Sequence record: OR352935.1
Source of the DNA: Escherichia phage AV104
DNA length: 43,102 nt
Reading direction: 5' to 3' (one strand)
Part shown: positions 7,986 to 38,909 of the stretch, in pieces
Layout: every line of letters starts with the position of its first letter
Position numbering within the stretch: the stretch's first letter is position 1
Made by a program: the position numbers and the translations under genes
Notes under the pieces: model-generated
Told to the model about the DNA's origin: nothing
Seen by the model: only the letters and a program-made list of their open reading frames with translations
The model's database searches: none

Positions 7986-8498
7986 ATGCCTCTAATCGTG
8001 GAAACGGGTGAAATCGTCCCTAATGCTGACAGTTACGTTAGTCTGGCTGACGCCCGCGCGTTAGCGGCTAATTATGGCCTGGAGTTGCCCGCGGATGATA
8101 CCGCCGCAGAGGTGGCCTTGCGTAATGGTGCAACGTATGTTGGGTTAGCAGAACCCCAGATGTGCGGTCGTCGTGTATCTGCCGAACAGTCACTGGCATA
8201 TCCTCGCACTGGTGTAACGTTGAATGGTTTCCCAGTAGCTAACAATGTCATTCCGAAACAGGTAATTCTTGCGCAGGTAATCTCTGCCGTTACGTATGGT
8301 GAGGGTACTGAGGTGCGGGCCAACTCCGATGGGCGTTCCGTGCAGACTGAGCGCGTAGAAGGCGCGGTGACAGTGACATACTTCAACAACGGCAGCAGTG
8401 GCGCTACAACCGCGATTACCGCTGCGGATGACGCCTTACGCCCGTTACTGTGCGGCGGTCTTAACAATGGCTTCTCGTTTAATGTGCGCCGGGGGTAA
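7986..8498 (+). CDS. head-tail connector / adaptor protein (putative)
   Basis: 170 aa; position between head and tail genes; assignment by synteny only. Confidence 0.4.
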   Translation: MPLIVETGEIVPNADSYVSLADARALAANYGLELPADDTAAEVALRNGATYVGLAEPQMCGRRVSAEQSLAYPRTGVTLNGFPVANNVIPKQVILAQVISAVTYGEGTEVRANSDGRSVQTERVEGAVTVTYFNNGSSGATTAITAADDALRPLLCGGLNNGFSFNVRRG

Positions 8499-8500
8499 AA

Positions 8501-9115
8501 ATGGCGAAGACTAAAACAGAGATGTTTACTCTTATCGGTGCAAATCTCCCCGATAATACCACTGGACTTATTACCCCCGCAGCGTTGCGCGAGGTAATGA
8601 CACAGATGGCTGACTCGCCTATCTATGCCACTCCGGGGGTTAAAGAGGTTGAAGTTCTCCGTGCCGCGTCGACAGTAGCACAAGCACCATCCGCAGTGGA
8701 CACAGCATTGCAAATAACTTTCGGTGCTGCCCAGGGAAGCGCGTCTAACCCGGTAATGATTAATGCTGCAGGGCTGGTTACATTCAACGCCGCGGGTAAC
8801 TACGCCGTTCGCATCAAGTTACAGGCGGGGCGTACGGGTGCTAGTGGGACATCAATCCTTTTATCACGCATTCTTCTTAACGGCGCTCAGTACGGCTCAC
8901 CCGCGGCCACGAAACTGGTAAGCGCGGATATTACAATCCCGATTGAATCCCGCGTCGTTATTAACCCCACCGCAGGCCAGACGTTTGCCGTTCAGATTAT
9001 GCGGGATAGCGCCGGAAGCAACTACGGTGGCGTATACCCGCAAGCGGCTACTGTAACCGCATGGGGTACAGCACCATCCGCATTACTGGTTATCTCGAGA
9101 CTGGAGGCAGCGTAA
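8501..9115 (+). CDS. hypothetical structural protein
   Basis: 204 aa, Ala/Thr/Gly-rich; within the neck gene block. Confidence 0.4.
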   Translation: MAKTKTEMFTLIGANLPDNTTGLITPAALREVMTQMADSPIYATPGVKEVEVLRAASTVAQAPSAVDTALQITFGAAQGSASNPVMINAAGLVTFNAAGNYAVRIKLQAGRTGASGTSILLSRILLNGAQYGSPAATKLVSADITIPIESRVVINPTAGQTFAVQIMRDSAGSNYGGVYPQAATVTAWGTAPSALLVISRLEAA

Positions 9116-23263: not shown

Positions 23264-23581
23264 ATGGCTACTATCATTCAAACCAACGGTATCAACATTG
23301 GCTCTAACTGCACGGGTGTTACTATCGTTTCCTGCAGTTTTAAAGGGAATAGTAACGGCGCTGTCGTAGGGTCGGGATGGAATAACGGGGACGGGGTAAA
23401 AGTAAGGACGCTGGCATGTATCGGTGTTGGAGATACGCCAGCGATTTCAAGGGGTACTACAGCGCAACGCCCTTCAGCACCTGTAAGTGGTCAGCAGTAT
23501 TACGATGCGTCCCTGGGGATTCCTATCTGGTGGAACTCAGTTAGTGGCACATGGAAAAACGCAGCAGGTGCTGACGTATAA
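23264..23581 (+). CDS. tail fiber C-terminal module (separate ORF or split continuation of tailspike)
   Basis: 105 aa in a different frame 11 nt after the tailspike stop; beta-helix-like repeats (NCTGVTIVSCSF) and a C-terminal GQQYYDASLGIPIWWN motif reminiscent of tail fiber C-termini. Confidence 0.45.
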   Translation: MATIIQTNGINIGSNCTGVTIVSCSFKGNSNGAVVGSGWNNGDGVKVRTLACIGVGDTPAISRGTTAQRPSAPVSGQQYYDASLGIPIWWNSVSGTWKNAAGADV

Positions 23582-23586
23582 AACTA

Positions 23587-23610
23587 AGGCCCCGAAAGGG
23601 GCCTTTTCTC
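23587..23610. terminator. bidirectional rho-independent terminator
   Basis: AAGGCCCC-GAAA-GGGGCCTT followed by TTCTC; ends both the structural operon and the reverse-strand replication operon. Confidence 0.65.
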
Positions 23611-23747
23611 TACTCGTCTGATAACTTCTCCAGAATAAACGCCAGTTGCGCATTGGCGGCGTCTCTCTGTTGCCGTAGTCTTAGGACTTCCTCTTCGAGT
23701 TCCTTGATACGTTTCTGTAAAGCTGGGATTGGGGCTACGATGTTCAT
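23610..23747 (-). CDS. small coiled-coil protein (45 aa, below cutoff)
   Basis: ATG overlaps upstream stop (ATGA); sequence MNIVAPIPALQKRIKELEEEVLRLRQQRDAANAQL. Confidence 0.3.
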   Translation of the reverse strand: MNIVAPIPALQKRIKELEEEVLRLRQQRDAANAQLAFILEKLSDE

Positions 23748-23929
23748 TTCTTACCATCACTTTTCTTGAAGCTACGTTTTATATCTGGCAGCGTGTAGCA
23801 TCTCGACTTCTCATATTTCCCGTCAGAGCTTACCAAAACAAAGCTGTTGCCGTCGTTTGATATGTACTCAATGGTGAAAGTATTGAACGAATGTACGCTG
23901 TATATTTCATCGCCAACATTAAGTTTCAT
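23744..23929 (-). CDS. hypothetical protein
   Basis: 61 aa ORF coupled to helicase gene. Confidence 0.45.
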   Translation of the reverse strand: MKLNVGDEIYSVHSFNTFTIEYISNDGNSFVLVSSDGKYEKSRCYTLPDIKRSFKKSDGKK

Positions 23930-25383
23930 TTCTTACCTCGTCTCTTCATGTAATTAAGCAACTCTTCCTGTACTGATTTCTTCTCGTCTGTACGCGCGGA
24001 AACAACCTCATCCAGCGTGTCTTTAGCGACGATGTGGTAGAGGAACACCGGGCGCTCGTGCCCCGCCTGCTTCTGTCGCACCGGGCCTATGCGCTCAACA
24101 ACCTGCAAATAGTGCTCAAGGTTCCAGCCTTGCGAAATAAACGCCAGATGATGGCCGCCGTCCTGTAAATTGAGGCCGTGTCCGGCTGACGCGGGATGAA
24201 CGCATAAAATCTCGATTTCACCACGGTTCCACGCTTCCATCTGCTTATTACCCTTAGCACCTTTGGCGAACGCCTGCGCCTGCGGAAAACGTTTCAGGAT
24301 GCGCTCCAGTTCATGCTTGAACTGATAGGCCACCAGTAACGGCGCACCCTGCAACTCTTCCACAATCGACTCAAGCGCGTCCAGTTTCGTGTCGTGCACT
24401 TTCTCCCAGTCTTTGGTTGCTTCCCCGTCTGGCCCCGATACATACACGGCACCGGATGCAATCTGGAGGCACTTCGATGTCTTCGCTGCCGCGTTAGCGG
24501 CCTCAACTTCCCCGCTCTCGAGTTCCGCAAATAACTTTTCCTCCATATCGATGTACGCCTGACGCGCCTTCTTCGGCAGGTCGATTTCAACCGGAACAAT
24601 AATCGGCGCTTCACACCCGAACCACTCAGCGGCGTCAATCGTGAGGCTTATGTCTTTCATCTTCTGGTGAATTTCATTATCCGCGCCCGGGCGTGCGTGG
24701 TACTCTCGCGCCATAGCCGATTTGCCTTTCTGTACCGAGTTAAACCAGCGGTCGGTGAACGCTGTGTATGAAGAACCGAGGCGCTCACCCGCATCTATAA
24801 ACCAGTTCTGCCCCCACAAGTCTTTGAGGCCGTTTGGTGAGGGTGTGCCTGTAAGGTTAATGAAACGCTTAACCTTTCCGAATGCCACCTTACTGAGCGC
24901 CTTTGCTCGCTTGCTTCCACCAGAACGGCTACGGAATGATTTCAGCTTCGTGCTTTCATCTGCGACGATAACGGTAAAAGGCCAGTCGTCTTTGCCGTAG
25001 TAGTCAATCAGCCACTCGATAACTTCGTAGTTCGTACACACTACGTTAGCATCGGACTCAAGCGCCGCGATGCGGCGCTTCTCCGAACCCGTTGCATCGA
25101 CGACACGCAGACACGGGAATCGCCATTTCTCTTGTTCTGCGGGCCATGTGCCGGACGCAACGCGCAGCGGGGCGAGGATTAACACGCGGTCGTCATCATT
25201 AAGCCGACCATTACGTAACAGTCGGTTTAACGCCCACAGTACGCTGCCGGTCTTCCCGGCGCCCATGCTTGCCCATATGTTACAGCGATTGTGCTGCAAC
25301 ATGAACGAGGTCATGAGCTTCTGGTACTCGCGCCTTTGAAACTTAGACATGATTGGCCTCATGAACTGCTTTTGCGAAACCAC
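23926..25383 (-). CDS. SF2 (SNF2/DEAD-like) ATP-dependent helicase
   Basis: 485 aa; Walker A SMGAGKTG, DExx box VIVADESTKL, C-terminal helicase motifs. Confidence 0.8.
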   Translation of the reverse strand: MVSQKQFMRPIMSKFQRREYQKLMTSFMLQHNRCNIWASMGAGKTGSVLWALNRLLRNGRLNDDDRVLILAPLRVASGTWPAEQEKWRFPCLRVVDATGSEKRRIAALESDANVVCTNYEVIEWLIDYYGKDDWPFTVIVADESTKLKSFRSRSGGSKRAKALSKVAFGKVKRFINLTGTPSPNGLKDLWGQNWFIDAGERLGSSYTAFTDRWFNSVQKGKSAMAREYHARPGADNEIHQKMKDISLTIDAAEWFGCEAPIIVPVEIDLPKKARQAYIDMEEKLFAELESGEVEAANAAAKTSKCLQIASGAVYVSGPDGEATKDWEKVHDTKLDALESIVEELQGAPLLVAYQFKHELERILKRFPQAQAFAKGAKGNKQMEAWNRGEIEILCVHPASAGHGLNLQDGGHHLAFISQGWNLEHYLQVVERIGPVRQKQAGHERPVFLYHIVAKDTLDEVVSARTDEKKSVQEELLNYMKRRGKK

Positions 25384-26026
25384 GCGGGGTAAGGCTGCGT
25401 ATTGTTTTTGTCCTCACCGATTTACCGCCTAATTTATTGTGTTGGTCGGAGTACCCATCAACCACGGCGACACATGATTTAACGGGCATCACAAAACCGT
25501 TACCCGCCCAAATACATGTCTTCTTAGGGTACGCGTCCCGCGGTTTTATGTATTCGGGGAACATTGGGTGCGTGTCGTCTTCGGGTAAATAGCCGCCGTA
25601 TTCGTACGGATTGAACGAATAGTCAGGCTTGCGCCATAAAGACGAAAGAACGCTAACCGGGTTCTCAATCATATAAGGTACGTTGTACTTTTTAGCCAGA
25701 CGCGCAGCCACTTTGCATGTAATCACGGCCTCTACCTGAAAAGTTGGATTCTTCTTCCGCTTCGTTTCGAAATGCGCTGCGCCGCTAACAGCTAAATCTG
25801 TGCACGGAGGGAACGCAAAAATAATATCCGGCGCAACCTCGAAGTCGAATTTATTGTCAATCCACGCGTTTATATAGTGGATGTTCTCGTGTTCAACTTT
25901 TGCGCCCAATCGCGCGTAGTCGCCGTGGTCGGCACCGTCGTAGTTGAAACAATAGCAAGTATGGCCCGCTTCCGCCCACGGTTGGGCCATGAGGCCCGAA
26001 CCGTCGAACAATGACCAGATAATCAT
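25343..26026 (-). CDS. compact C5-cytosine methyltransferase-like protein
   Basis: 227 aa; motif I LFDGSG, motif IV FPPCTD, ENP (motif VI-like), C-terminal RSLTPRGFAKA (motif IX/X-like); no room for a large target-recognition domain. Confidence 0.5.
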   Translation of the reverse strand: MIIWSLFDGSGLMAQPWAEAGHTCYCFNYDGADHGDYARLGAKVEHENIHYINAWIDNKFDFEVAPDIIFAFPPCTDLAVSGAAHFETKRKKNPTFQVEAVITCKVAARLAKKYNVPYMIENPVSVLSSLWRKPDYSFNPYEYGGYLPEDDTHPMFPEYIKPRDAYPKKTCIWAGNGFVMPVKSCVAVVDGYSDQHNKLGGKSVRTKTIRSLTPRGFAKAVHEANHV

Positions 26027-26214
26027 TTCGCCACCAGAACTAACTCTTTACGCCCGAACGCCGTAACGTTACCGGTTACGTCTTCGATAACCAGTTTACC
26101 GTTCGACTCTACGTACACCGTATCAACGGCAACAGGGCGACGGGTCTTAACATTGAAAATCATGTCGCCCGGTACGATGTCACGTGCTGGTTTGCGGTCG
26201 TATTCGTGTTTCAT
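26023..26214 (-). CDS. hypothetical protein
   Basis: 63 aa ORF in operon. Confidence 0.4.
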   Translation of the reverse strand: MKHEYDRKPARDIVPGDMIFNVKTRRPVAVDTVYVESNGKLVIEDVTGNVTAFGRKELVLVAK

Positions 26215-26253
26215 TTCTCAATTCCTTATAGTTAAGGCCCCGAAGGGCCTGTA

Positions 26254-26508
26254 TTAGTTAGATAATTCGGCTTGAACTTGCTTAATAAGTTCTCCAGCCG
26301 TTGTGAAGTCTACGGACAGCCGTTTAGCTACGTCTTCCGCAAGCACTTTGCGGCCAACCGACCCGAAACCCAGGATACGGTTTACTTCCGAAACCTTCAT
26401 ATACCATGAGTAATTAACTGATGCCCCTGTGTACTTACAGATTCGAACAGATGAATCGATTGAACCCATAATCATGGTGTTTACTGACAGTTGAAGTTCG
26501 ATAGCCAT
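26254..26508 (-). CDS. hypothetical protein
   Basis: 84 aa ORF in operon. Confidence 0.4.
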   Translation of the reverse strand: MAIELQLSVNTMIMGSIDSSVRICKYTGASVNYSWYMKVSEVNRILGFGSVGRKVLAEDVAKRLSVDFTTAGELIKQVQAELSN

Positions 26509-26509
26509 T

Positions 26510-26824
26510 TTATAATTCCTTATATTGTTGGGGTATGTGCTTACTATAATAGTCTGCTATTAGGGTGTCAATCTGTTTTATCGAACCAACGACAAAAACA
26601 TTCGCGCCACGTTTACGCATCCGCTCGTGCTCGCGTAACTGGTGTGGGTCTGGCTTCGTGCTTTCATCTTTCTTAACCTCAACGAACCAGATGATGCCGC
26701 CGGGGAGGATTACCAACAGGTCGGGCGCTCCGTTTCGGCCCTCATACACTATCTTACGAACGAGGCCCCCCAGGGCCTCGAATCGGTCTTTCGCGTATTT
26801 CTGTACGCGGCCCTCTTTAGTCAT
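26510..26824 (-). CDS. VRR-NUC domain nuclease
   Basis: PD-(D/E)XK-like motif (GAPDLLVILPGGIIWFVEVKK ... HQLREHE); ATG at 26824 coupled to upstream tiny ORF (track start 26839 is TTG). Confidence 0.7.
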   Translation of the reverse strand: MTKEGRVQKYAKDRFEALGGLVRKIVYEGRNGAPDLLVILPGGIIWFVEVKKDESTKPDPHQLREHERMRKRGANVFVVGSIKQIDTLIADYYSKHIPQQYKEL

Positions 26825-26973
26825 GGGCGTAGAACCCAAGTAAGGAAAGCCCCTCCTAGAACGGCAACACCGACAAACTTAAAGAACAGGCCATAACAGA
26901 ACATCGTGGCTATTCCCGCCCCGAGTAACAGTGCAAGCATGGTTACTATTGTCCAAAATACAAACATTGTCAT
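26821..26973 (-). CDS. tiny membrane protein (50 aa)
   Basis: hydrophobic MTMFVFWTIVTMLALLLGAGIATMFCYGLFFKFVGVAVLGGAFLTWVL; ATGA overlaps on both sides. Confidence 0.35.
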   Translation of the reverse strand: MTMFVFWTIVTMLALLLGAGIATMFCYGLFFKFVGVAVLGGAFLTWVLRP

Positions 26974-27059
26974 AATACGCACCCCTCACGTTTCGTGTGC
27001 TCAATCCCGCAGCGCGGACAGATTCGACAGTCTTCTTCATAGAACCAGTAGATTTTCAT
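26970..27059 (-). CDS. tiny Cys-rich peptide (29 aa)
   Basis: MKIYWFYEEDCRICPRCGIEHTKREGCVL with four Cys; ATGA overlaps on both sides. Confidence 0.3.
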   Translation of the reverse strand: MKIYWFYEEDCRICPRCGIEHTKREGCVL

Positions 27060-27187
27060 TCCAGCACCCACAGATAAATTGCGATGAACATACCTAATAC
27101 GGCTACAATCATGCCGTATTGGCCCTCGTGACAGTAGACACCGGCGGCAAATCCCGCCAGTACTGCGATAATCAGTTTACTTAGCAT
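27056..27187 (-). CDS. tiny membrane protein (43 aa)
   Basis: MLSKLIIAVLAGFAAGVYCHEGQYGMIVAVLGMFIAIYLWVLE; ATG lies four codons before the polymerase stop. Confidence 0.35.
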   Translation of the reverse strand: MLSKLIIAVLAGFAAGVYCHEGQYGMIVAVLGMFIAIYLWVLE

Positions 27188-29450
27188 AACGGTACACCTC
27201 TTCCCCAGCCCATGTTAACGGGAACCCTTCGGCCCACTCAGGTAATGAGCATAGCAGGTCACCCATCTCTTTAACCGTGTACTCTGGCGTGTCTGGCGTT
27301 TCGGCAACACATTCGTCATGTACGTGGAGTACAATTGGGTAGCCCGCCGCCTCGACCGTCAGGAGTCCGTTAACCAGTAAATCACGGCACAACGCCTGGA
27401 TGATGTTTTCACACAATTTTCCGCCGTGGGTGTACAAAGTTGTCCACTGGCGGGTGGTCTGATTTTCACCCTGATACTTAATGCGGACGTTAGTAGTAAC
27501 GCGCCCATCCTCGTCAGTCTCTTTAGTGACGCTTAAGCCTATGCCAGGGTAGGACATGATGCGCCCAGACGGCAGTTCCACGCACAACCACCAACCCGGA
27601 ACCGGATTACCGTGGTTGTCTTTTTCTTTGGTACGCCAGATGCGGATGGCTCTGTCGCCGTTAAGGCGTACTCGGGCCCCCGCCCAAAACTCTCGTCCCG
27701 GATTTCTGATGGCGGCTATCACCGAATCCTTAAGGTCATTCCAGAATTTCACTGTTTCCGGATGGGCTTCCCGCCACATGCGCTTAATGGCGTCACAGGT
27801 GCGCCAGACTTCTTTAGGCAGCACATAAGAGGCCCGTTCATCTTTTTTACCAGGCTTTGGCGGGCGTTTAGCCTCCTGAATTCTGGCCCATTCGTAGCCA
27901 CGGGCGGTAGCCGCCCAAATGTGGTCGGGGAACGTGCCCCGCATTGTCTCTGTCATTTTAAAGAGGTCCAGCCCGTAAGTTTTAGCCATAGTCATAAAAG
28001 CCCCTACGCCCCCCTCGTAGCCGAGGCCGAGTTCGCAACATTTCCCGACCTGACGTAGGTCCTTACGGGTGGCTTTTAGTTCTACGGGGTCCATGCCAAA
28101 CATCTTGCCCGCGGTGGCGCAATAAATATCAATCCCTGCGCGGAAGGTCTCAAGCGCGGATGTCTCCCCCGCGGTCCAGGCCAACCCGCGCCCTTCTACG
28201 TTTGAGTAGTCGGCAACGAGCAACTTATTACCCTTTTCAGGGATGATGCAACTGCGAACAGTCGAGGCTGTCAGCTTGGATACGTCGAAACGACGGTGCG
28301 CCCGACCCTTTAGCAGCAGATTGATGCCGAACGATAGGGGGTTGAGACGACGGTTCCAGTCTTCGTCGGACTCCCACGGCTGGCGTACAAGTTTCTTCTC
28401 CTCGTTAGTCGGGTCATCATGATAGTACCCGCGCGACAGGTTCTGCGGCTGGAACCCTTTACCCGCAAATCGTAAAGTGCGCTTTGCCCCACCGTACTGG
28501 ATGCAACCGCGGCGGCGGCCGTCTTTGGACCGTCCTAGCAGGAGCGGTTTGTATTTTGTCGACGCCGTGGAGGCCGCGCCGAGGCGCATCTCAATGATTG
28601 TGCGCGCATCGTCAGGTAAGTCGTCGTCCTCTAGCAAACCTTCGAGCGTTGCTTTCTGCGCATTATAGATATTGTAGGCCGGTGCCAGCTCCCGAAGGAT
28701 TGGCAGGAAGTCTTTACCCGTTAGCTTCCCGCCAAATTTAGCCCTGGCCTCGTTTTTTAGCTCTTGCTTGTGGCGTTCAACTGCTGCTACCGCCGCCTCA
28801 GCAAGAGCCGCATCAACAAAGAAGCCTCGGTCGTTGATTAACTGGTCAAGTTCAAGTACACGGTCCTCGAAATCGGAGTTACCCCAACGTGGCAGCTTAT
28901 GGAAGACTTCACGCATCGCTGTGATGTCGCTCACGGCGTACTTGATGAACAGCGCCCATTCGTCCGGGTGCGTTTCGGCGGTGTAGCGGCGGATTTTATA
29001 GTTCTTCGGGGTTGGTTTGGAGAAACGCTGAATCAGAGCCTTGCCACGTTTATCTTTCGCGTTGTCGGCGGATACGCCCAGCACTTCGCATAATGCGTCA
29101 AGTGAACCCGGCAGCGCGTGGCGAAACGCCCAAATCATAGTGTCAATGGTGTTGCTGACCGGAATATCGAAGCCCCAGCAGTTCTTCATGATGAGCCTAT
29201 CGAAAAGTCCACCGTTATGCCACACCATCTTAATGCGACTGTTTGGCTTCACCAGACGGCGTAACGCGCGGTGTAAATCTCCCGGCATGTCGCTGCCGTC
29301 AGTGCAGTCCCATACCTGAACAGGCTCGTCATCAAAAGCATAGGTGCAGATGAGCACTTCGGTAGTCGGGTGTTCGGCGTAAGCATAGGAGCCGACTTTC
29401 TTCAAATCGGCTTCGGAGAAGGTTTCAAAGTCCAGGTATAAGTAGCTCAT
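27177..29450 (-). CDS. family A DNA polymerase with 3'-5' exonuclease domain
   Basis: 757 aa; ExoI YLDFETFS; motif A DYSNVEGRGLAW; motif B RQVGKCCELGLGYEGG; motif C VLHVHDECV. Confidence 0.9.
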   Translation of the reverse strand: MSYLYLDFETFSEADLKKVGSYAYAEHPTTEVLICTYAFDDEPVQVWDCTDGSDMPGDLHRALRRLVKPNSRIKMVWHNGGLFDRLIMKNCWGFDIPVSNTIDTMIWAFRHALPGSLDALCEVLGVSADNAKDKRGKALIQRFSKPTPKNYKIRRYTAETHPDEWALFIKYAVSDITAMREVFHKLPRWGNSDFEDRVLELDQLINDRGFFVDAALAEAAVAAVERHKQELKNEARAKFGGKLTGKDFLPILRELAPAYNIYNAQKATLEGLLEDDDLPDDARTIIEMRLGAASTASTKYKPLLLGRSKDGRRRGCIQYGGAKRTLRFAGKGFQPQNLSRGYYHDDPTNEEKKLVRQPWESDEDWNRRLNPLSFGINLLLKGRAHRRFDVSKLTASTVRSCIIPEKGNKLLVADYSNVEGRGLAWTAGETSALETFRAGIDIYCATAGKMFGMDPVELKATRKDLRQVGKCCELGLGYEGGVGAFMTMAKTYGLDLFKMTETMRGTFPDHIWAATARGYEWARIQEAKRPPKPGKKDERASYVLPKEVWRTCDAIKRMWREAHPETVKFWNDLKDSVIAAIRNPGREFWAGARVRLNGDRAIRIWRTKEKDNHGNPVPGWWLCVELPSGRIMSYPGIGLSVTKETDEDGRVTTNVRIKYQGENQTTRQWTTLYTHGGKLCENIIQALCRDLLVNGLLTVEAAGYPIVLHVHDECVAETPDTPEYTVKEMGDLLCSLPEWAEGFPLTWAGEEVYRYAK

Positions 29451-29605
29451 TTCTTTTTCCTTAAATCCAGTGCCTTAGTTTCGCTGAGTCTTATTTTCAT
29501 ACAATCACGGCAAATCCACACATGCCTGTACCCGGCACGGTACTCGTCCGCGTACCACGGAAGTGGCTTCATATATCGGTATACGTGCTTACAGAAAAAC
29601 ATCAT
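29447..29605 (-). CDS. small Cys/His-rich protein (52 aa)
   Basis: MMFFCKHVYRYMKPLPWYADEYRAGYRHVWICRDCMKIRLSETKALDLRKKK; stop overlaps the polymerase ATG (ATGA). Confidence 0.35.
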   Translation of the reverse strand: MMFFCKHVYRYMKPLPWYADEYRAGYRHVWICRDCMKIRLSETKALDLRKKK

Positions 29606-29610
29606 TTTCG

Positions 29611-29642
29611 ACCCTTAGTAAAAAGGCCCAATAAAGGGCCTT
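29611..29642 (-). terminator. hairpin / terminator after DUF2815-like gene
   Basis: AAGGCCC-AATAA-AGGGCCTT with T-tract on the minus strand. Confidence 0.45.
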
Positions 29643-29661
29643 AATTAAACAGATTCAGATA

Positions 29662-30294
29662 TTAACCACGGCGACGACGTTCGCGGCGCGGTGCTTCATC
29701 TTCTTCGTCGTCTTCCAGGTCGTCGGTGCTCGCTACTACACTGGAGCCGCCGAAGCGTTTACCTTCGCCCATATACTTGATGCCGAGGATGGTAGCGCAC
29801 AGGTTTTTCCAATCTTTGTGCCACCATAATTCTACAGATACGTTTGCGATACATCCGCTATATACCTGCTCGCCTTCTATTTCTTTCCCGTCGATGTTGA
29901 AATCAGGCTCGGTTTGTTTTTCACCTTTAGCCGATGTCATAATCACCGGTTGGCGGTTGTTTGTAGCGCGGAAATACAGACCTTCTTCAAAATCCTCAAT
30001 CGGATTATCTCGCATTGCCAGGTCACGGACGCAGCATTTGTCTGCGTGGTGGTCTACACCGTAGTTGGCCTTCATCCATTTCTCGGCAGCAGCGGCCCCG
30101 ATTGCATCTGTTACAACTTCCAACGCGGTGTCGTAAAGCGCATCAATTTGAGGATGGTCAGGCTGCATAAGAACAGTAACCTGATACTTACCCTTAATCA
30201 GTTTACCGGTTTTCTTGTCCTCAGAGTCGGCGGCACGTTCAAATACGTTAACCCAGGCAGTGTTTACTTTACGCAGATTCAGTTTAATACCCAT
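29662..30294 (-). CDS. phage replication-associated protein (DUF2815-like, possible ssDNA-binding)
   Basis: 210 aa; acidic and Arg-rich C-terminal tail (DDLEDDEEDEAPRRERRRRG); sits between polymerase and Cas4-like nuclease; family assigned from memory only. Confidence 0.4.
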   Translation of the reverse strand: MGIKLNLRKVNTAWVNVFERAADSEDKKTGKLIKGKYQVTVLMQPDHPQIDALYDTALEVVTDAIGAAAAEKWMKANYGVDHHADKCCVRDLAMRDNPIEDFEEGLYFRATNNRQPVIMTSAKGEKQTEPDFNIDGKEIEGEQVYSGCIANVSVELWWHKDWKNLCATILGIKYMGEGKRFGGSSVVASTDDLEDDEEDEAPRRERRRRG

Positions 30295-30349
30295 CGTGAT
30301 TTCTCGCTTTTAAGTTTACTCCGGGAGCTGCCCGGCCAGTGATTAGAAC

Positions 30350-30368
30350 TATAATAGCTAACTATTCA
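30350..30368. promoter_or_regulatory. promoter/operator motif TATAATAGCTAACTATTCA
   Basis: same quasi-palindromic motif as at the early promoters; lies upstream of gene 29662-30294 (minus). Confidence 0.35.
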
Positions 30369-30595
30369 GAAGTCAAATAAAATTTTGCAATAGTGAGTAT
30401 GTTCTCGAAGTCACGCATGTTAGCAGGTTCAAATTCATCCTCTATAGGTTCGTATCGCATCATCGTACCGTTCAGGAACGTGAACGATTCCGAATGTAGA
30501 TAGCCGTTCCAGCGCCATACCATCACAAAATCTTTATCAGTCGGCATTTCATTTACTTGAATCATTCCAAATCCTCCTCTGTTACTTGATTCCAC
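30362..30595 (-). CDS. hypothetical protein
   Basis: 77 aa ORF. Confidence 0.4.
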   Translation of the reverse strand: MESSNRGGFGMIQVNEMPTDKDFVMVWRWNGYLHSESFTFLNGTMMRYEPIEDEFEPANMRDFENILTIAKFYLTSE

Positions 30596-37977: not shown

Positions 37978-38335
37978 CAATGACGCAGTAATCGAGTTCC
38001 TGTTTAACCAACTACAGCAGCAGCTAACGAACAACCCATACAAGCAACAGTGCGAAGACCTGGCGCATGAGGTGCAGTCACTTAAGAATCAGTTACGCGA
38101 TATGTCGGAGCTGGTGGATGCGCTACTGGGGACGATAACGTTAATGAACGGGAAATCTAGTTGCCGTAAAGAAGACGCGCAGGAATGCTACCATAACTGG
38201 CGATTCGTCGGGGGTAAGTCGCCCGCCGTATGTATTAATTGCGGTGTGACTAAAGCCGAGGAATGTAAGCACGATTGGTACTTTTACGATAAAGGCGCCT
38301 CGATGATGTGCAAGAAATGTGGGCTGAAGAAATGA
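37970..38335 (+). CDS. zinc-ribbon protein, paralogue A (coiled-coil N-terminus, two C-x-H-x-W...C-x2-C-G units)
   Basis: ECYHNWRFVGGKSPAVCINCGVTK and ECKHDWYFYDKGASMMCKKCGLKK. Confidence 0.5.
   Translation: MSNNDAVIEFLFNQLQQQLTNNPYKQQCEDLAHEVQSLKNQLRDMSELVDALLGTITLMNGKSSCRKEDAQECYHNWRFVGGKSPAVCINCGVTKAEECKHDWYFYDKGASMMCKKCGLKK
38160..38187 (+). repeat. direct DNA repeat shared by zinc-ribbon paralogues A and B (GTTGCCGTAAAGAAGACGC..A.GAATG)
   Basis: second copy at 38809-38836; both encode SGCRKEDAQEC. Confidence 0.6.
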
Positions 38336-38535
38336 CCAGCATCCTCTTTATCTGGGTACTGTCCGCAGGCCAGATGCAACTGGCGGCAGCAGAAACGTTT
38401 TATTCGATGGAGGCGTGCCAGTCAGCGGCACGCGCCGCAGAGAACGCGCACTTCCTGTTTCAGGGCGACAAGCCCAACGATTCAGAGGTACGCGCTATCT
38501 GCTCACCCAAGCGACTTGGTAAACAGGAGAAGTGA
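38332..38535 (+). CDS. small protein with N-terminal hydrophobic segment
   Basis: ATG overlaps upstream stop; MTSILFIWVLSAGQMQLAAA signal-like N-terminus. Confidence 0.35.
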   Translation: MTSILFIWVLSAGQMQLAAAETFYSMEACQSAARAAENAHFLFQGDKPNDSEVRAICSPKRLGKQEK

Positions 38536-38909
38536 TTATGGTACAGAGATATAACGCTTCATATAACGACTATTATGAAAACGATGCCGGTGAGTTTGTA
38601 AGTTATGAAGACTATGTGAAACTCGAAGCAGATTTTAAGGCGTACAAAGCCTCTGCTTACATGGTTGCAGAGCAGTATGCGGGGGTAATTAAGGAACTCG
38701 AAGCCGAGTTACAGAAATACAAAGACCAGTTCCCGGATTACGTCGAGTGCGCGAACTGTAGGTCAGTTACACATGTGGAAGGAGTTGAAGACGCTATGGG
38801 GCAATCCGGTTGCCGTAAAGAAGACGCCCAAGAATGTGAACACGTGTGGAATAGGTACATTGTACACCCTCACAGAAAGATATGTTTAGTATGCGGGGTG
38901 AAGGAATGA
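38532..38909 (+). CDS. zinc-ribbon protein, paralogue B
   Basis: CANCRSV...SGCRKEDAQECEHVWNRYIVHPHRKICLVCGVKE. Confidence 0.5.
   Translation: MIMVQRYNASYNDYYENDAGEFVSYEDYVKLEADFKAYKASAYMVAEQYAGVIKELEAELQKYKDQFPDYVECANCRSVTHVEGVEDAMGQSGCRKEDAQECEHVWNRYIVHPHRKICLVCGVKE

Follow-up and report, generated by a model that had tools for sequence, protein, structure and literature searches.

The window, by which we mean the whole 43,102-nucleotide stretch of Escherichia phage AV104 that was analysed (sequence record OR352935.1), is the genome of a Kagunavirus (Guernseyvirinae) coliphage. Three micro-ORFs, here called o1, o2 and o3, lie on its minus strand, as do their neighbours. The chain is anchored upstream by the gene of a family A DNA polymerase (27177-29450, minus strand; 757 aa; Pfam DNA_pol_A, E = 1.9e-12), annotated as DNA polymerase I in phage hz69. 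It is followed by o1 (27056-27187, minus strand), which encodes a hydrophobic peptide of 43 aa, MLSKLIIAVLAGFAAGVYCHEGQYGMIVAVLGMFIAIYLWVLE, predicted to form a two-helix hairpin with a conserved CHEGQY turn. Next comes o2 (26970-27059, minus strand), which starts at an ATGA and encodes a predicted soluble peptide of 29 aa, MKIYWFYEEDCRICPRCGIEHTKREGCVL, with an EED acidic patch and a zinc-knuckle-like motif, CPRCG...H...C. The last of the three, o3 (26821-26973, minus strand), encodes a very hydrophobic peptide of 50 aa; it is an accessory cassette with an ATGA at both ends. Its stop is ATGA-coupled to the gene of a VRR-NUC type nuclease (26510-26824, minus strand; 104 aa), which matches PDB 4QBN_A (E = 9.2e-51), 4QBO_A (5.5e-8) and 4QBL_A, named VRR-NUC (0.58), and reaches only 15.8 bits with Pfam VRR_NUC (PF08774), under the cut-off of 23.8. 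According to its depositors, 4QBN is reportedly a phage VRR-NUC. A preliminary description of this DNA had placed ORFs of 43, 29 and 50 aa between the polymerase and the nuclease, and all three were found as described.

We analysed the junctions of the chain in the window and in 46 related loci, which served as the comparison set for lengths, junctions and architectures. The preliminary description had an ATGA at every start; this holds for o1/o2, o2/o3 and o3/VRR-NUC and fails for polymerase/o1, where the o1 ATG lies 11 nt within the polymerase 3' end (ATGCTAAGTAA), giving an 11-nt overlap. The 4-nt overlap is kept at 40 of 40 o1/o2 junctions (38 ATGA, 2 GTGA) and at 23 of 23 o3/nuclease junctions (22 ATGA, 1 GTGA). 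Lengths are likewise fixed, with 43 aa in all 40 loci that have o1 and 50 aa in all 23 that have o3, so that the conservation of ORFs and coupling to which the preliminary description had looked extends across the 46 loci.

The Shine-Dalgarno (SD) sequence of o1, AAGAGGT (27196-27202, minus strand), lies within the polymerase 3' end and forms an anti-SD duplex of -7.1 kcal/mol, where the background is -2.35 +/- 2.4 kcal/mol; GGAG or GAGG is retained at its position in all relatives. A second one, GAGGGG (26982-26987, minus strand; -8.5 kcal/mol), is embedded in Arg-Glu-Gly codons of o2 and serves whichever gene comes next. The starts of o2 (-3.7 kcal/mol) and of the nuclease (-3.1 kcal/mol) are at background level: o2 has no SD of its own, and the nuclease has none in this genome. 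In the mechanism that we propose, o1 and o3 would be initiated from strong SDs embedded in the 3' codons of the gene before, while ribosomes finishing o1 and o3 would go straight on to initiate o2 and the nuclease. Lacking an SD and starting at an ATGA, the latter two genes probably depend on termination-reinitiation, SD strength being a proxy only. Within 26821-27187 we found no terminator and only one promoter-like match (9/12, at 26945-26973), weak and at chance level; the counts of both kinds of element, judged against shuffles, are at shuffle level. No Rfam family was matched anywhere in the window.

Coupling by termination-reinitiation at overlapping stop and start codons (ATGA or TGATG) is known from the E. 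coli trp genes and from many phage operons. The o1-o3 chain resembles such pairs in that its genes share a strand, overlap by 4 nt and have neither promoter nor terminator between them, and in the missing SDs of o2 and the nuclease; it differs from them in that translation of o1 and o3, given their good SDs, could start unaided.

We then considered the coding evidence. Calculated in their own frames, dN/dS is 0.21 for o1, 0.063 for o2 and 0.17 for o3; for comparison, the polymerase C-terminus has 0.088 and the VRR-NUC nuclease 0.126. In the other two frames across o1-o3 the value is 0.78-3.1. Variable sites fall mostly at third codon positions, and synonymous divergence over the three ORFs is 0.22-0.44. 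As judged from these substitution patterns, o1, o2 and o3 are under purifying selection. With three further small ORFs of the operon (orf52, orf61 and orf45, see below) included, the proposed frames have dN/dS values of 0.04-0.21 and the other two frames values of 0.8-3.8, which, together with the conserved 4-nt overlaps, bears out the view that these are genuine, systematically coupled micro-proteins. Database homologues agree in length: the o1 homologues form 84 protein clusters, almost all of 43 aa, and those of o3 form 100, nearly all of 50 aa, many of both coming from contigs of about 41-45 kb. Frameshifts fuse o1 to o2 in 5 of the roughly 85 o1 clusters, reflecting either occasional loss of o1 or assembly errors, and o2-o3 fusion variants also occur. 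We consider it very probable that o1, o2 and o3 are genuine conserved small-protein genes within the replication/recombination operon, translated as a ribosome relay.

The ORFs are already known as deposited hypothetical proteins, grouped in phrog_10404, phrog_38225 and phrog_14925. In phage hz69, which is 99.3% identical, all three are annotated (UTQ77376-UTQ77378) and the proteins are 100% identical. Phage Snoke has them as CPT_Snoke_039-041, annotated with ribosome-binding sites; there o3 is called from an internal ATG and hence has 39 aa. Matching phage records in GenBank number 585. Of 32 annotated ones among the matches listed, 21 have three or more hypothetical CDS beneath the match. 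The full set is missing from older records alone (K1G, K1ind1-3), and LSPA1 omits only the 29-aa o2. To say that such ORFs are usually missed by annotation was thus an overstatement, given hz69, Snoke, these 21 records and the three PHROG families. Nor is ATGA coupling peculiar to this spot: genes of this genome normally overlap in their start and stop codons. In hz69, 19 of the 67 same-strand junctions are 4-nt overlaps and 37 overlap in some way, and 19 of the 76 genes have 60 aa or fewer. Among the papers searched we found none that discusses o1-o3, nothing above threshold for them in Pfam, NCBIfam or PADLOC, and no relatives beyond this phage group, a full HMMER scan for o2 included. As regards biochemical role, the products are hypothetical proteins only, as they are in hz69 and in the PHROG entries.

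The product of o1 matches phrog_10404 over 43 of 43 profile positions (E = 9.1e-31). Its GRAVY is 1.53, with a Kyte-Doolittle 19-residue window peak of 2.3, and AlphaFold2 places helices at residues 2-20 and 22-42 with a break at the conserved CHEGQY turn (pLDDT 94; 68 to 94 over the five models). In an AGFAAG segment the first Gly is invariant, while a few sequences have Ser or Val in place of the second. The product is thus predicted to be a two-helix membrane hairpin. A search for homologues returned only close relatives of the same length; weak matches to EMC6 and MARVEL merely reflect hydrophobic hairpins and were rejected as evidence of kinship. o1 is absent from 6 of the 46 loci, its loss consisting of a 128-nt deletion between 8-nt TGATTATC repeats that joins the first 7 codons of o1 in frame to o2.

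The product of o3 matches phrog_14925 over 49 of 50 profile positions (E = 5.8e-33) and is more hydrophobic still (GRAVY 1.69; 19-residue window peak 2.2). It has an invariant GAG and a near-invariant GG, and AlphaFold2 gives a single helix from residue 2 to 48 (pLDDT 90), so that one long hydrophobic helix with small-residue packing motifs is predicted. Here, too, the homologues found were only close relatives of the same length. By hydropathy and AlphaFold2 alike, both o1 and o3 contain a hydrophobic helix of at least 18 residues; models of such peptides in isolation have little bearing on membrane topology. The preliminary description had called both single-pass, which agrees with the long helix of o3 and disagrees with the two helices of o1.

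The middle ORF was said to have four Cys, and these stand at positions 11, 14, 17 and 27 of o2. The gene is found in all 46 loci, where C14, P15, G18 and C27 are each conserved in 46, C17 and H21 in 45 and C11 in 40; the Cys/His columns C11, C17, H21 and C27 are each replaced in at least one sequence. The gene is thereby shown to belong to the core of this phage group, under a constraint as strong as that on the polymerase. Its product, which matches phrog_38225 over 28 of 36 profile positions (E = 2.5e-22), would be a soluble peptide, acidic and then basic, with four conserved Cys/His ligands that include a CPxCG-type knuckle. The near-invariant C14-P-R-C17-G...H21...C27 suggests a CCHC zinc knuckle, as far as a motif in a 29-aa peptide can indicate. 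The retroviral zinc knuckle has the spacing C-x2-C-x4-H-x4-C. The o2 motif, C-x2-C-x3-H-x5-C with CPRCG, spans 14 residues like the retroviral one and resembles both CCHC and CPxCG zinc-ribbon knuckles, but its spacing is unlike the retroviral one and no Pfam zinc-finger model reaches threshold, the best being zf_C2H2_ZNF598 with 12.1 bits against a cut-off of 27. NCBIfam gave no match for o2, and the full HMMER scan, run with a 33-aa GTG-extended form, found nothing beyond two close relatives and a spurious repeat protein. That o2 acts with the replication or recombination proteins, or on nucleic acid, is a possibility to which we give appreciable weight, short of an even chance.

The architecture of the interval varies among the 46 loci: o1-o2-o3 in 21, o1-o2 in 19, o2-o3 in 2 and o2 alone in 4, so that o3 is present in 23 and missing from 23. 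The series shows o1 and o3 to be accessory cassettes that the phages can dispense with. The slot behind o2 is occupied by o3, by a 64-aa ORF, by hydrophobic peptides of 23-25 aa, by a 165-aa HNH_3 endonuclease gene (Pfam, 3.7e-11) or by nothing. Whether the occupant is o3, the 64-aa ORF, one of the 23-25-aa peptides or the HNH gene, the junction GAGGGGTG(C/T)(G/A)TATTATGA precedes it, and the slot starts nearly always at this common SD and ATGA junction, with the pattern ...GAGGGGTG.(.)TATTATGA. In loci without o3, GAGGGG stands directly before the nuclease ATG. These comparisons show that the slot accepts alternative small genes at one fixed SD and ATGA junction, and that a cassette, once inserted, takes the SD and start from the core gene that follows, which it leaves ATGA-coupled. 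A 231-aa ORF in one locus (L029) looks like a further HNH endonuclease by eye but has no Pfam match at E <= 0.01, and was not counted as one.

The same rule is shown to hold at two other places in the operon, before the polymerase and before orf45. A Cys/His-rich ORF of 51-52 aa, orf52 (29447-29605, minus strand; dN/dS 0.065), is inserted at the polymerase start, to which it is coupled by the ATGA overlap that had been described for it. In place of its first ATG, 8 of 8 relatives have ATA, and the true start is therefore probably the second ATG, giving 51 aa. It is missing from hz69, where AAGGGTC..ATG leads directly into the polymerase; orf52 thus occupies the SD and start position which there serve the polymerase directly. 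In phage Jersey, orf52 has a stop at E21. Between the helicase gene and orf45 lies a 61-aa cassette, orf61 (23744-23929, minus strand; dN/dS 0.062), flanked by a 13-nt direct repeat, GGTAAGAAATGAA, at 23925-23937 and 23743-23755. This cassette is also missing from hz69, where helicase and orf45 are joined via one copy of the repeat, and both hz69 absences fall exactly at start/stop junctions. The last gene of the operon, orf45 (23610-23747, minus strand; dN/dS 0.042; phrog_5915, 9.6e-27), encodes a coiled-coil-like product of 45 aa with a variable N-terminus and a conserved C-terminal 33 aa; the chain of helicase, 61-aa ORF and 45-aa ORF that had been noted earlier is indeed there, with two ATGA overlaps. 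The 52-, 61- and 45-aa ORFs are conserved genes too. After orf45, an intrinsic-terminator-like hairpin (23586-23605, minus strand) with an 8-bp stem of which 6 pairs are GC, then a T-rich tail, closes the operon.

Small accessory genes that are present or absent in otherwise syntenic relatives recall the phage morons and the mosaic recombination at gene boundaries reportedly described by Hendrix and colleagues: o1 is absent from 6 and o3 from 23 of 46 loci, orf52 and orf61 are absent in hz69, and the break points lie at gene boundaries. Classical morons bring their own promoter and terminator. The cassettes of this operon, in contrast, have neither; they are spliced into a translation relay and use the SD and start of the downstream gene.

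Several other readings of the interval were weighed. The ORFs might be coupling spacers or uORF-like relays that carry ribosomes from polymerase to nuclease and whose peptides have no function. The missing SDs of o2 and the nuclease at their ATGA overlaps would fit this, as would a slot that tolerates very different inserts or none; purifying selection over the whole length (dN/dS 0.06-0.21) and conservation of CPRCG..H..C, CHEGQY and GAG..GG are not expected of a pure spacer, however, and a spacer is unnecessary, since the nuclease takes the GAGGGG SD directly wherever o3 is missing. We regard this reading as very improbable. It is also very unlikely that o1 and o3 encode membrane proteins of lysis or holin type: they are small, very hydrophobic and helix-forming, as holins would be, but they lie inside the replication operon between polymerase and resolvase, have no charged C-terminal tail and are lacking in many fully lytic relatives. 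In hz69, moreover, the endolysin gene (38225-38710) belongs to a separate cluster about 29 kb from the micro-ORFs (8494-8860).

We also asked whether o2 is no separate gene and is instead the C-terminal end of a polymerase read-through or a product of o1 frameshifting. The idea arises because o2 is in the polymerase frame, and in the window, as in 36 of 40 loci, no stop codon interrupts this frame between the polymerase TAA and the stop of o2; databases also contain natural o1-o2 fusions 72-73 aa in length. Such openness is, however, expected in 58.5% of cases from the hydrophobic codon composition of o1 alone, and stops break the frame in the other 4 of 40 loci. Across o1 the polymerase frame has a dN/dS of 1.1-2.0 and hence is not selected as coding; where o1 is missing, o2 lies in the +1 frame relative to the polymerase; and the fusion break points vary among variants, which means that there is no common slip site. 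We rejected both forms of this reading, on composition, broken frames, absent selection and the frame of o2 without o1, and consider it highly improbable. Least credible is a non-coding interval with chance frames, whose conservation would be that of a regulatory RNA, a promoter, an origin or another RNA or DNA element. The ORFs are very short, and the weak 9/12 promoter-like match would suit it; against it stand codon periodicity, dN/dS far below 1 in the proposed frames only, the lack of Rfam matches with promoter and terminator counts at shuffle level, and indels between genomes that keep to ORF boundaries or to the reading frame. When the 367-nt region was shuffled by mononucleotides 5000 times, an ATG-ORF tiling of this kind arose in only 4 cases. 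This reading is effectively refuted already. A 53-aa ORF in an alternative frame (26879-27040) was discarded as well: it is 21-28 aa long or missing in many relatives, and dN/dS in that frame is at least 1.

Having retained o1-o3 as small-protein genes, we considered what their products may do. Small membrane proteins of at most 50 aa that modulate larger membrane proteins (PMC11364881; bioRxiv 10.1101/511675) resemble those of o1 and o3 in size, hydrophobicity and conserved small-residue motifs, and differ in that o1 and o3 have no sequence relation to any characterised member. The products of o1 and o3 may target host proteins at the inner membrane or help to exclude other phages, a possibility to which we give slightly less weight than to the role suggested for o2. 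More speculative, and on balance rather unlikely in its entirety, is a general scheme in which the SD and ATGA junctions after o2, before the polymerase and before orf45 would be fixed docking points at which Guernseyvirinae phages exchange promoter-less micro-gene cassettes, the swapped membrane peptides (o1, o3 and those of 23-25 aa) would be determinants of host range, exclusion or counter-defence, and the universal o2 would assist the polymerase/resolvase machinery as a zinc-knuckle cofactor.

The discovery value is small, the ORFs having been deposited and grouped in PHROG and overlapping start and stop codons being routine here. Yet o2, the best conserved gene of the interval, has been dropped by gene callers (LSPA1, K1G, K1ind1-3) and exemplifies a core phage gene below common length cut-offs. 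Since the nuclease, and partly the polymerase, have ceded their ribosome-binding site to a micro-gene, deleting such 'hypothetical' ORFs could silence the core gene downstream, a risk relevant to the engineering of therapeutic Kagunavirus or Jerseyvirus phages. The natural series of o1-o2-o3, o1-o2, o2-o3 and o2 alone provides a ready set of variants for probing the roles of the peptides.

The 352-nt gap between the stop of the family A DNA polymerase gene and the start of the VRR-NUC nuclease gene is tiled by three minus-strand micro-ORFs, o1 (27056-27187, 43 aa), o2 (26970-27059, 29 aa) and o3 (26821-26973, 50 aa). The preliminary description had every ORF of this chain start at an ATGA; this is the case at the o1/o2, o2/o3 and o3/nuclease junctions, but polymerase and o1 are joined by an 11-nt overlap (ATGCTAAGTAA). 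Similar tiling arose by chance in 4 of 5000 random shuffles of the 367-nt region. The four cysteines claimed for o2 are present, a Cys/His-rich ORF (orf52) is indeed coupled to the polymerase start by an ATGA overlap, and the helicase/orf61 and orf61/orf45 junctions, which involve the micro-ORFs reported after the helicase, are both ATGA. The original observation is thus real, with small errors.

The chain and its neighbours are minus-strand genes of a replication/recombination operon ordered SSB-like protein, orf52, polymerase, o1-o2-o3, nuclease, two small ORFs, cytosine methyltransferase, SNF2 helicase, orf61, orf45 and terminator. The nuclease is closely related to 4QBN, a solved structure (E 9e-51), and scores below threshold against Pfam VRR_NUC. 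The 1.2 kb around o1-o3 is 100% identical to LM08P2 (Kagunavirus) and 99.3% to Escherichia phage hz69, and matches phage records of the Kagunavirus/Jerseyvirus group (Guernseyvirinae), 249 by megablast and 585 by blastn.

We compared 46 loci: the window, 42 from IMG/VR and three from GenBank. dN/dS in the proposed frame was 0.21 for o1, 0.063 for o2 and 0.17 for o3, against 1.08-1.97, 1.25-3.12 and 0.78-1.71 in the other two frames. The polymerase C-terminus (0.088 against 1.63-2.40), nuclease (0.126 against 1.46-2.75), orf52 (0.065 against 2.58-3.52), orf61 (0.062 against 2.15-2.24) and orf45 (0.042 against 2.10-3.83) behaved alike, and third codon positions hold most variable sites. Length is 43 aa in all 40 loci carrying o1 and 50 aa in all 23 carrying o3; ATGA joins o1 to o2 in 38 loci (GTGA in two) and o3 to the nuclease in 22 (GTGA in one). 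In protein searches, o1 drew 84 clusters and o3 drew 100, almost constant in length and many from 41-45 kb contigs. Related genomes do not show the frameshifts or stops that would speak against the ORFs, the sole clear disruption being in phage Jersey, whose orf52 has a stop at E21; frameshifts have joined o1 to o2 or o2 to o3 in a few database proteins, each represented by one to three sequences and with break points that differ. dN/dS, constant lengths and kept junctions agree in marking o1, o2 and o3 as coding genes for real proteins. A 53-aa alternative-frame ORF overlapping the chain (26879-27040) is not conserved in relatives.

Could o2 instead be part of a polymerase read-through or frameshift product? 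It shares the polymerase reading frame, which has no stop codon between the one ending polymerase and the one ending o2; however, o1 codon composition predicts such openness 58.5% of the time, the frame is closed in 4 of 40 loci, its dN/dS over o1 is 1.1-2.0, and in loci lacking o1 o2 is out of the polymerase frame. This reading is therefore not supported. Amino-acid conservation contradicts a pure spacer role for o1-o3, and location and dispensability contradict a role in lysis.

As separate genes, the three ORFs differ in their initiation signals. Anti-Shine-Dalgarno duplex energy, computed on the 20 nt preceding each start, is -7.1 kcal/mol for o1 and -8.5 for o3, as compared with -3.7 for o2, -3.1 for the nuclease and -2.35 +/- 2.4 for random 20-mers. 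The Shine-Dalgarno sequence (SD) of o3, GAGGGG, is made by Arg-Glu-Gly codons of o2. Within the chain, scans found no terminator and no promoter above chance level, and an Rfam search no family. We infer a ribosome relay, in which ribosomes would load at the o1 and o3 SDs, and those ending at the ATGA overlaps would initiate o2 and the nuclease. Elsewhere in the operon, a hairpin (AAGGCCCTTTATTGGGCCTTTTT; 29612-29645, minus strand) directly after the SSB-like gene, ahead of orf52 and polymerase, resembles an intrinsic terminator or attenuator; it is kept in hz69 and absent from the terminator scan output. The region's top sigma-70-like match (TTGACA-17-TATAGT, 11/12; 26543-26571, minus strand) lies within the nuclease gene 3' end, upstream of an 84-aa ORF.

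Only o2 occurs in 46/46 loci; o1 and o3 are optional. All three are present in 21 loci (in four of these a further 64-aa ORF separates o2 from o3), o1-o2 in 19, o2-o3 in two and o2 alone in four. Behind o2 in the o1-o2 loci, the slot before the nuclease is empty (13 loci) or holds the 64-aa ORF (two), a 23-25-aa hydrophobic peptide (two), a 165-aa HNH_3 endonuclease (one; Pfam 3.7e-11) or its decayed remnant (one). Every alternative cassette starts at one common junction, GAGGGGTG(C/T)(G/A)TATTATGA, and in the empty slot GAGGGG directly serves the nuclease ATG; o3 hence has the appearance of a gene inserted precisely at the nuclease ATG(A), where it would have captured the nuclease SD and made the nuclease ATGA-coupled. 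This insertion rule also holds for orf52, which occupies the SD and start that serve polymerase directly in hz69, and for orf61, which lies between copies of a 13-nt direct repeat (GGTAAGAAATGAA) present once in hz69. A 128-nt deletion between 8-nt repeats (TGATTATC) accounts for loci without o1; it joins the first seven o1 codons in frame to o2 (MLSKLII-YYFREEDC...), which would still be translated from the o1 start. In a syntenic Dhillonvirus genome, an unrelated 63-aa ORF in the polymerase-resolvase slot is ATGA-coupled like the o1-o3 chain.

The homing-type HNH_3 gene (L027:1008-1505) sits between o2 and nuclease with the same ATGA start; its remnant (L044:1361-1492) is truncated to 43 aa. 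The conserved 63-64-aa ORF (MSNKPFSKKLAALVDMPEWEF...CAGCTHKGVYY...), an alternative or additional cassette in L005, L006, L018, L024, L034 and L040, has one weak match, A2L zinc-ribbon-like (E 0.012). A 231-aa Cys-rich ORF between polymerase and o1 (L029:453-1148) gave nothing in Pfam at E 0.01 or better; its end (...WPEGECRDAK*) and o1-start overlap resemble how the polymerase gene ends (...WAEGFPL..YRYAK*), as though insertion had duplicated the polymerase tail.

o2 is soluble (GRAVY -0.43). Invariant in 46/46 loci are I3, Y4, E8-E9-D10, R12-I13-C14-P15-R16, G18, T22-K23-R24-E25-G26 and C27, with C17 and H21 in 45 and C11 in 40, which fits a putative zinc knuckle of CCHC type that includes a CPxCG turn. 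It matched no curated family, and a full HMMER scan found nothing outside this phage group. Because o2 is core, constrained like polymerase and always between polymerase and resolvase, our best guess is that it acts with replication/recombination proteins or on nucleic acid. Both hydrophobic peptides had been described as single-pass. For o3, AF2 predicts one helix (2-48, pLDDT 90; G18-A19-G20 and G40 invariant, G41 nearly so); o1 is probably a membrane hairpin, modelled as helices 2-20 and 22-42 flanking a conserved CHEGQY turn (best model at pLDDT 94, the five models spanning 68-94). Our best guess for o1 and o3 is an accessory role in the inner membrane, where these peptides may target host proteins or help to exclude other phages. 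A search of one literature collection found no paper on o1-o3.

Such ORFs were said to be usually missed by annotation, which does not hold here: hz69 annotates all three, the Snoke record even with ribosome-binding sites, each has its own PHROG family (function unknown), and at least three hypothetical CDS lie under the match in 21 of the 32 annotated records listed. Among these, only the 2010 K1G/K1ind records miss all three; the LSPA1 annotation omits only the 29-aa o2. o1-o3 are already known, as catalogued ORFs without characterisation. Nor is the coupling special, as 19 of 67 same-strand junctions in hz69 are 4-nt overlaps (37 overlap at all) and 19 of its 76 genes encode 60 aa or fewer; an ATGA-coupled chain is the normal style of the genome. 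The additions made here, the cassette-at-ATGA pattern and the universal presence of o2, are modest.

Relative to hz69 and LM08P2, the window is a mosaic over 23300-30500. For the orf52 region, the phage collection offers nothing at 99% or above (SZH-1 comes closest, 95.3%), and the orf61/orf45 region is nearest to LM02P1 (98.8%). Identity of the polymerase C-terminal 120 aa (27177-27536) to relatives is bimodal, 99-100% in five loci including Jerseyvirus LSPA1 and 71-78% elsewhere, a pattern that identity in o1-o3 and the nuclease does not follow; this suggests recombination, with break points close to where the polymerase gene ends. The helicase ORF call begins at a GTG (25383; region 25343-25383) lacking an SD (+1.1 kcal/mol), and hz69 annotates a 474-aa version overlapping the methyltransferase by 8 nt; the true start is thus probably a downstream ATG. 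Homologues of orf45 in L062, L063 and L064 keep the C-terminal coiled-coil part (RIKELEEEVLRLRQQRDAANAQL) behind different and longer N-termini (59-67 aa).
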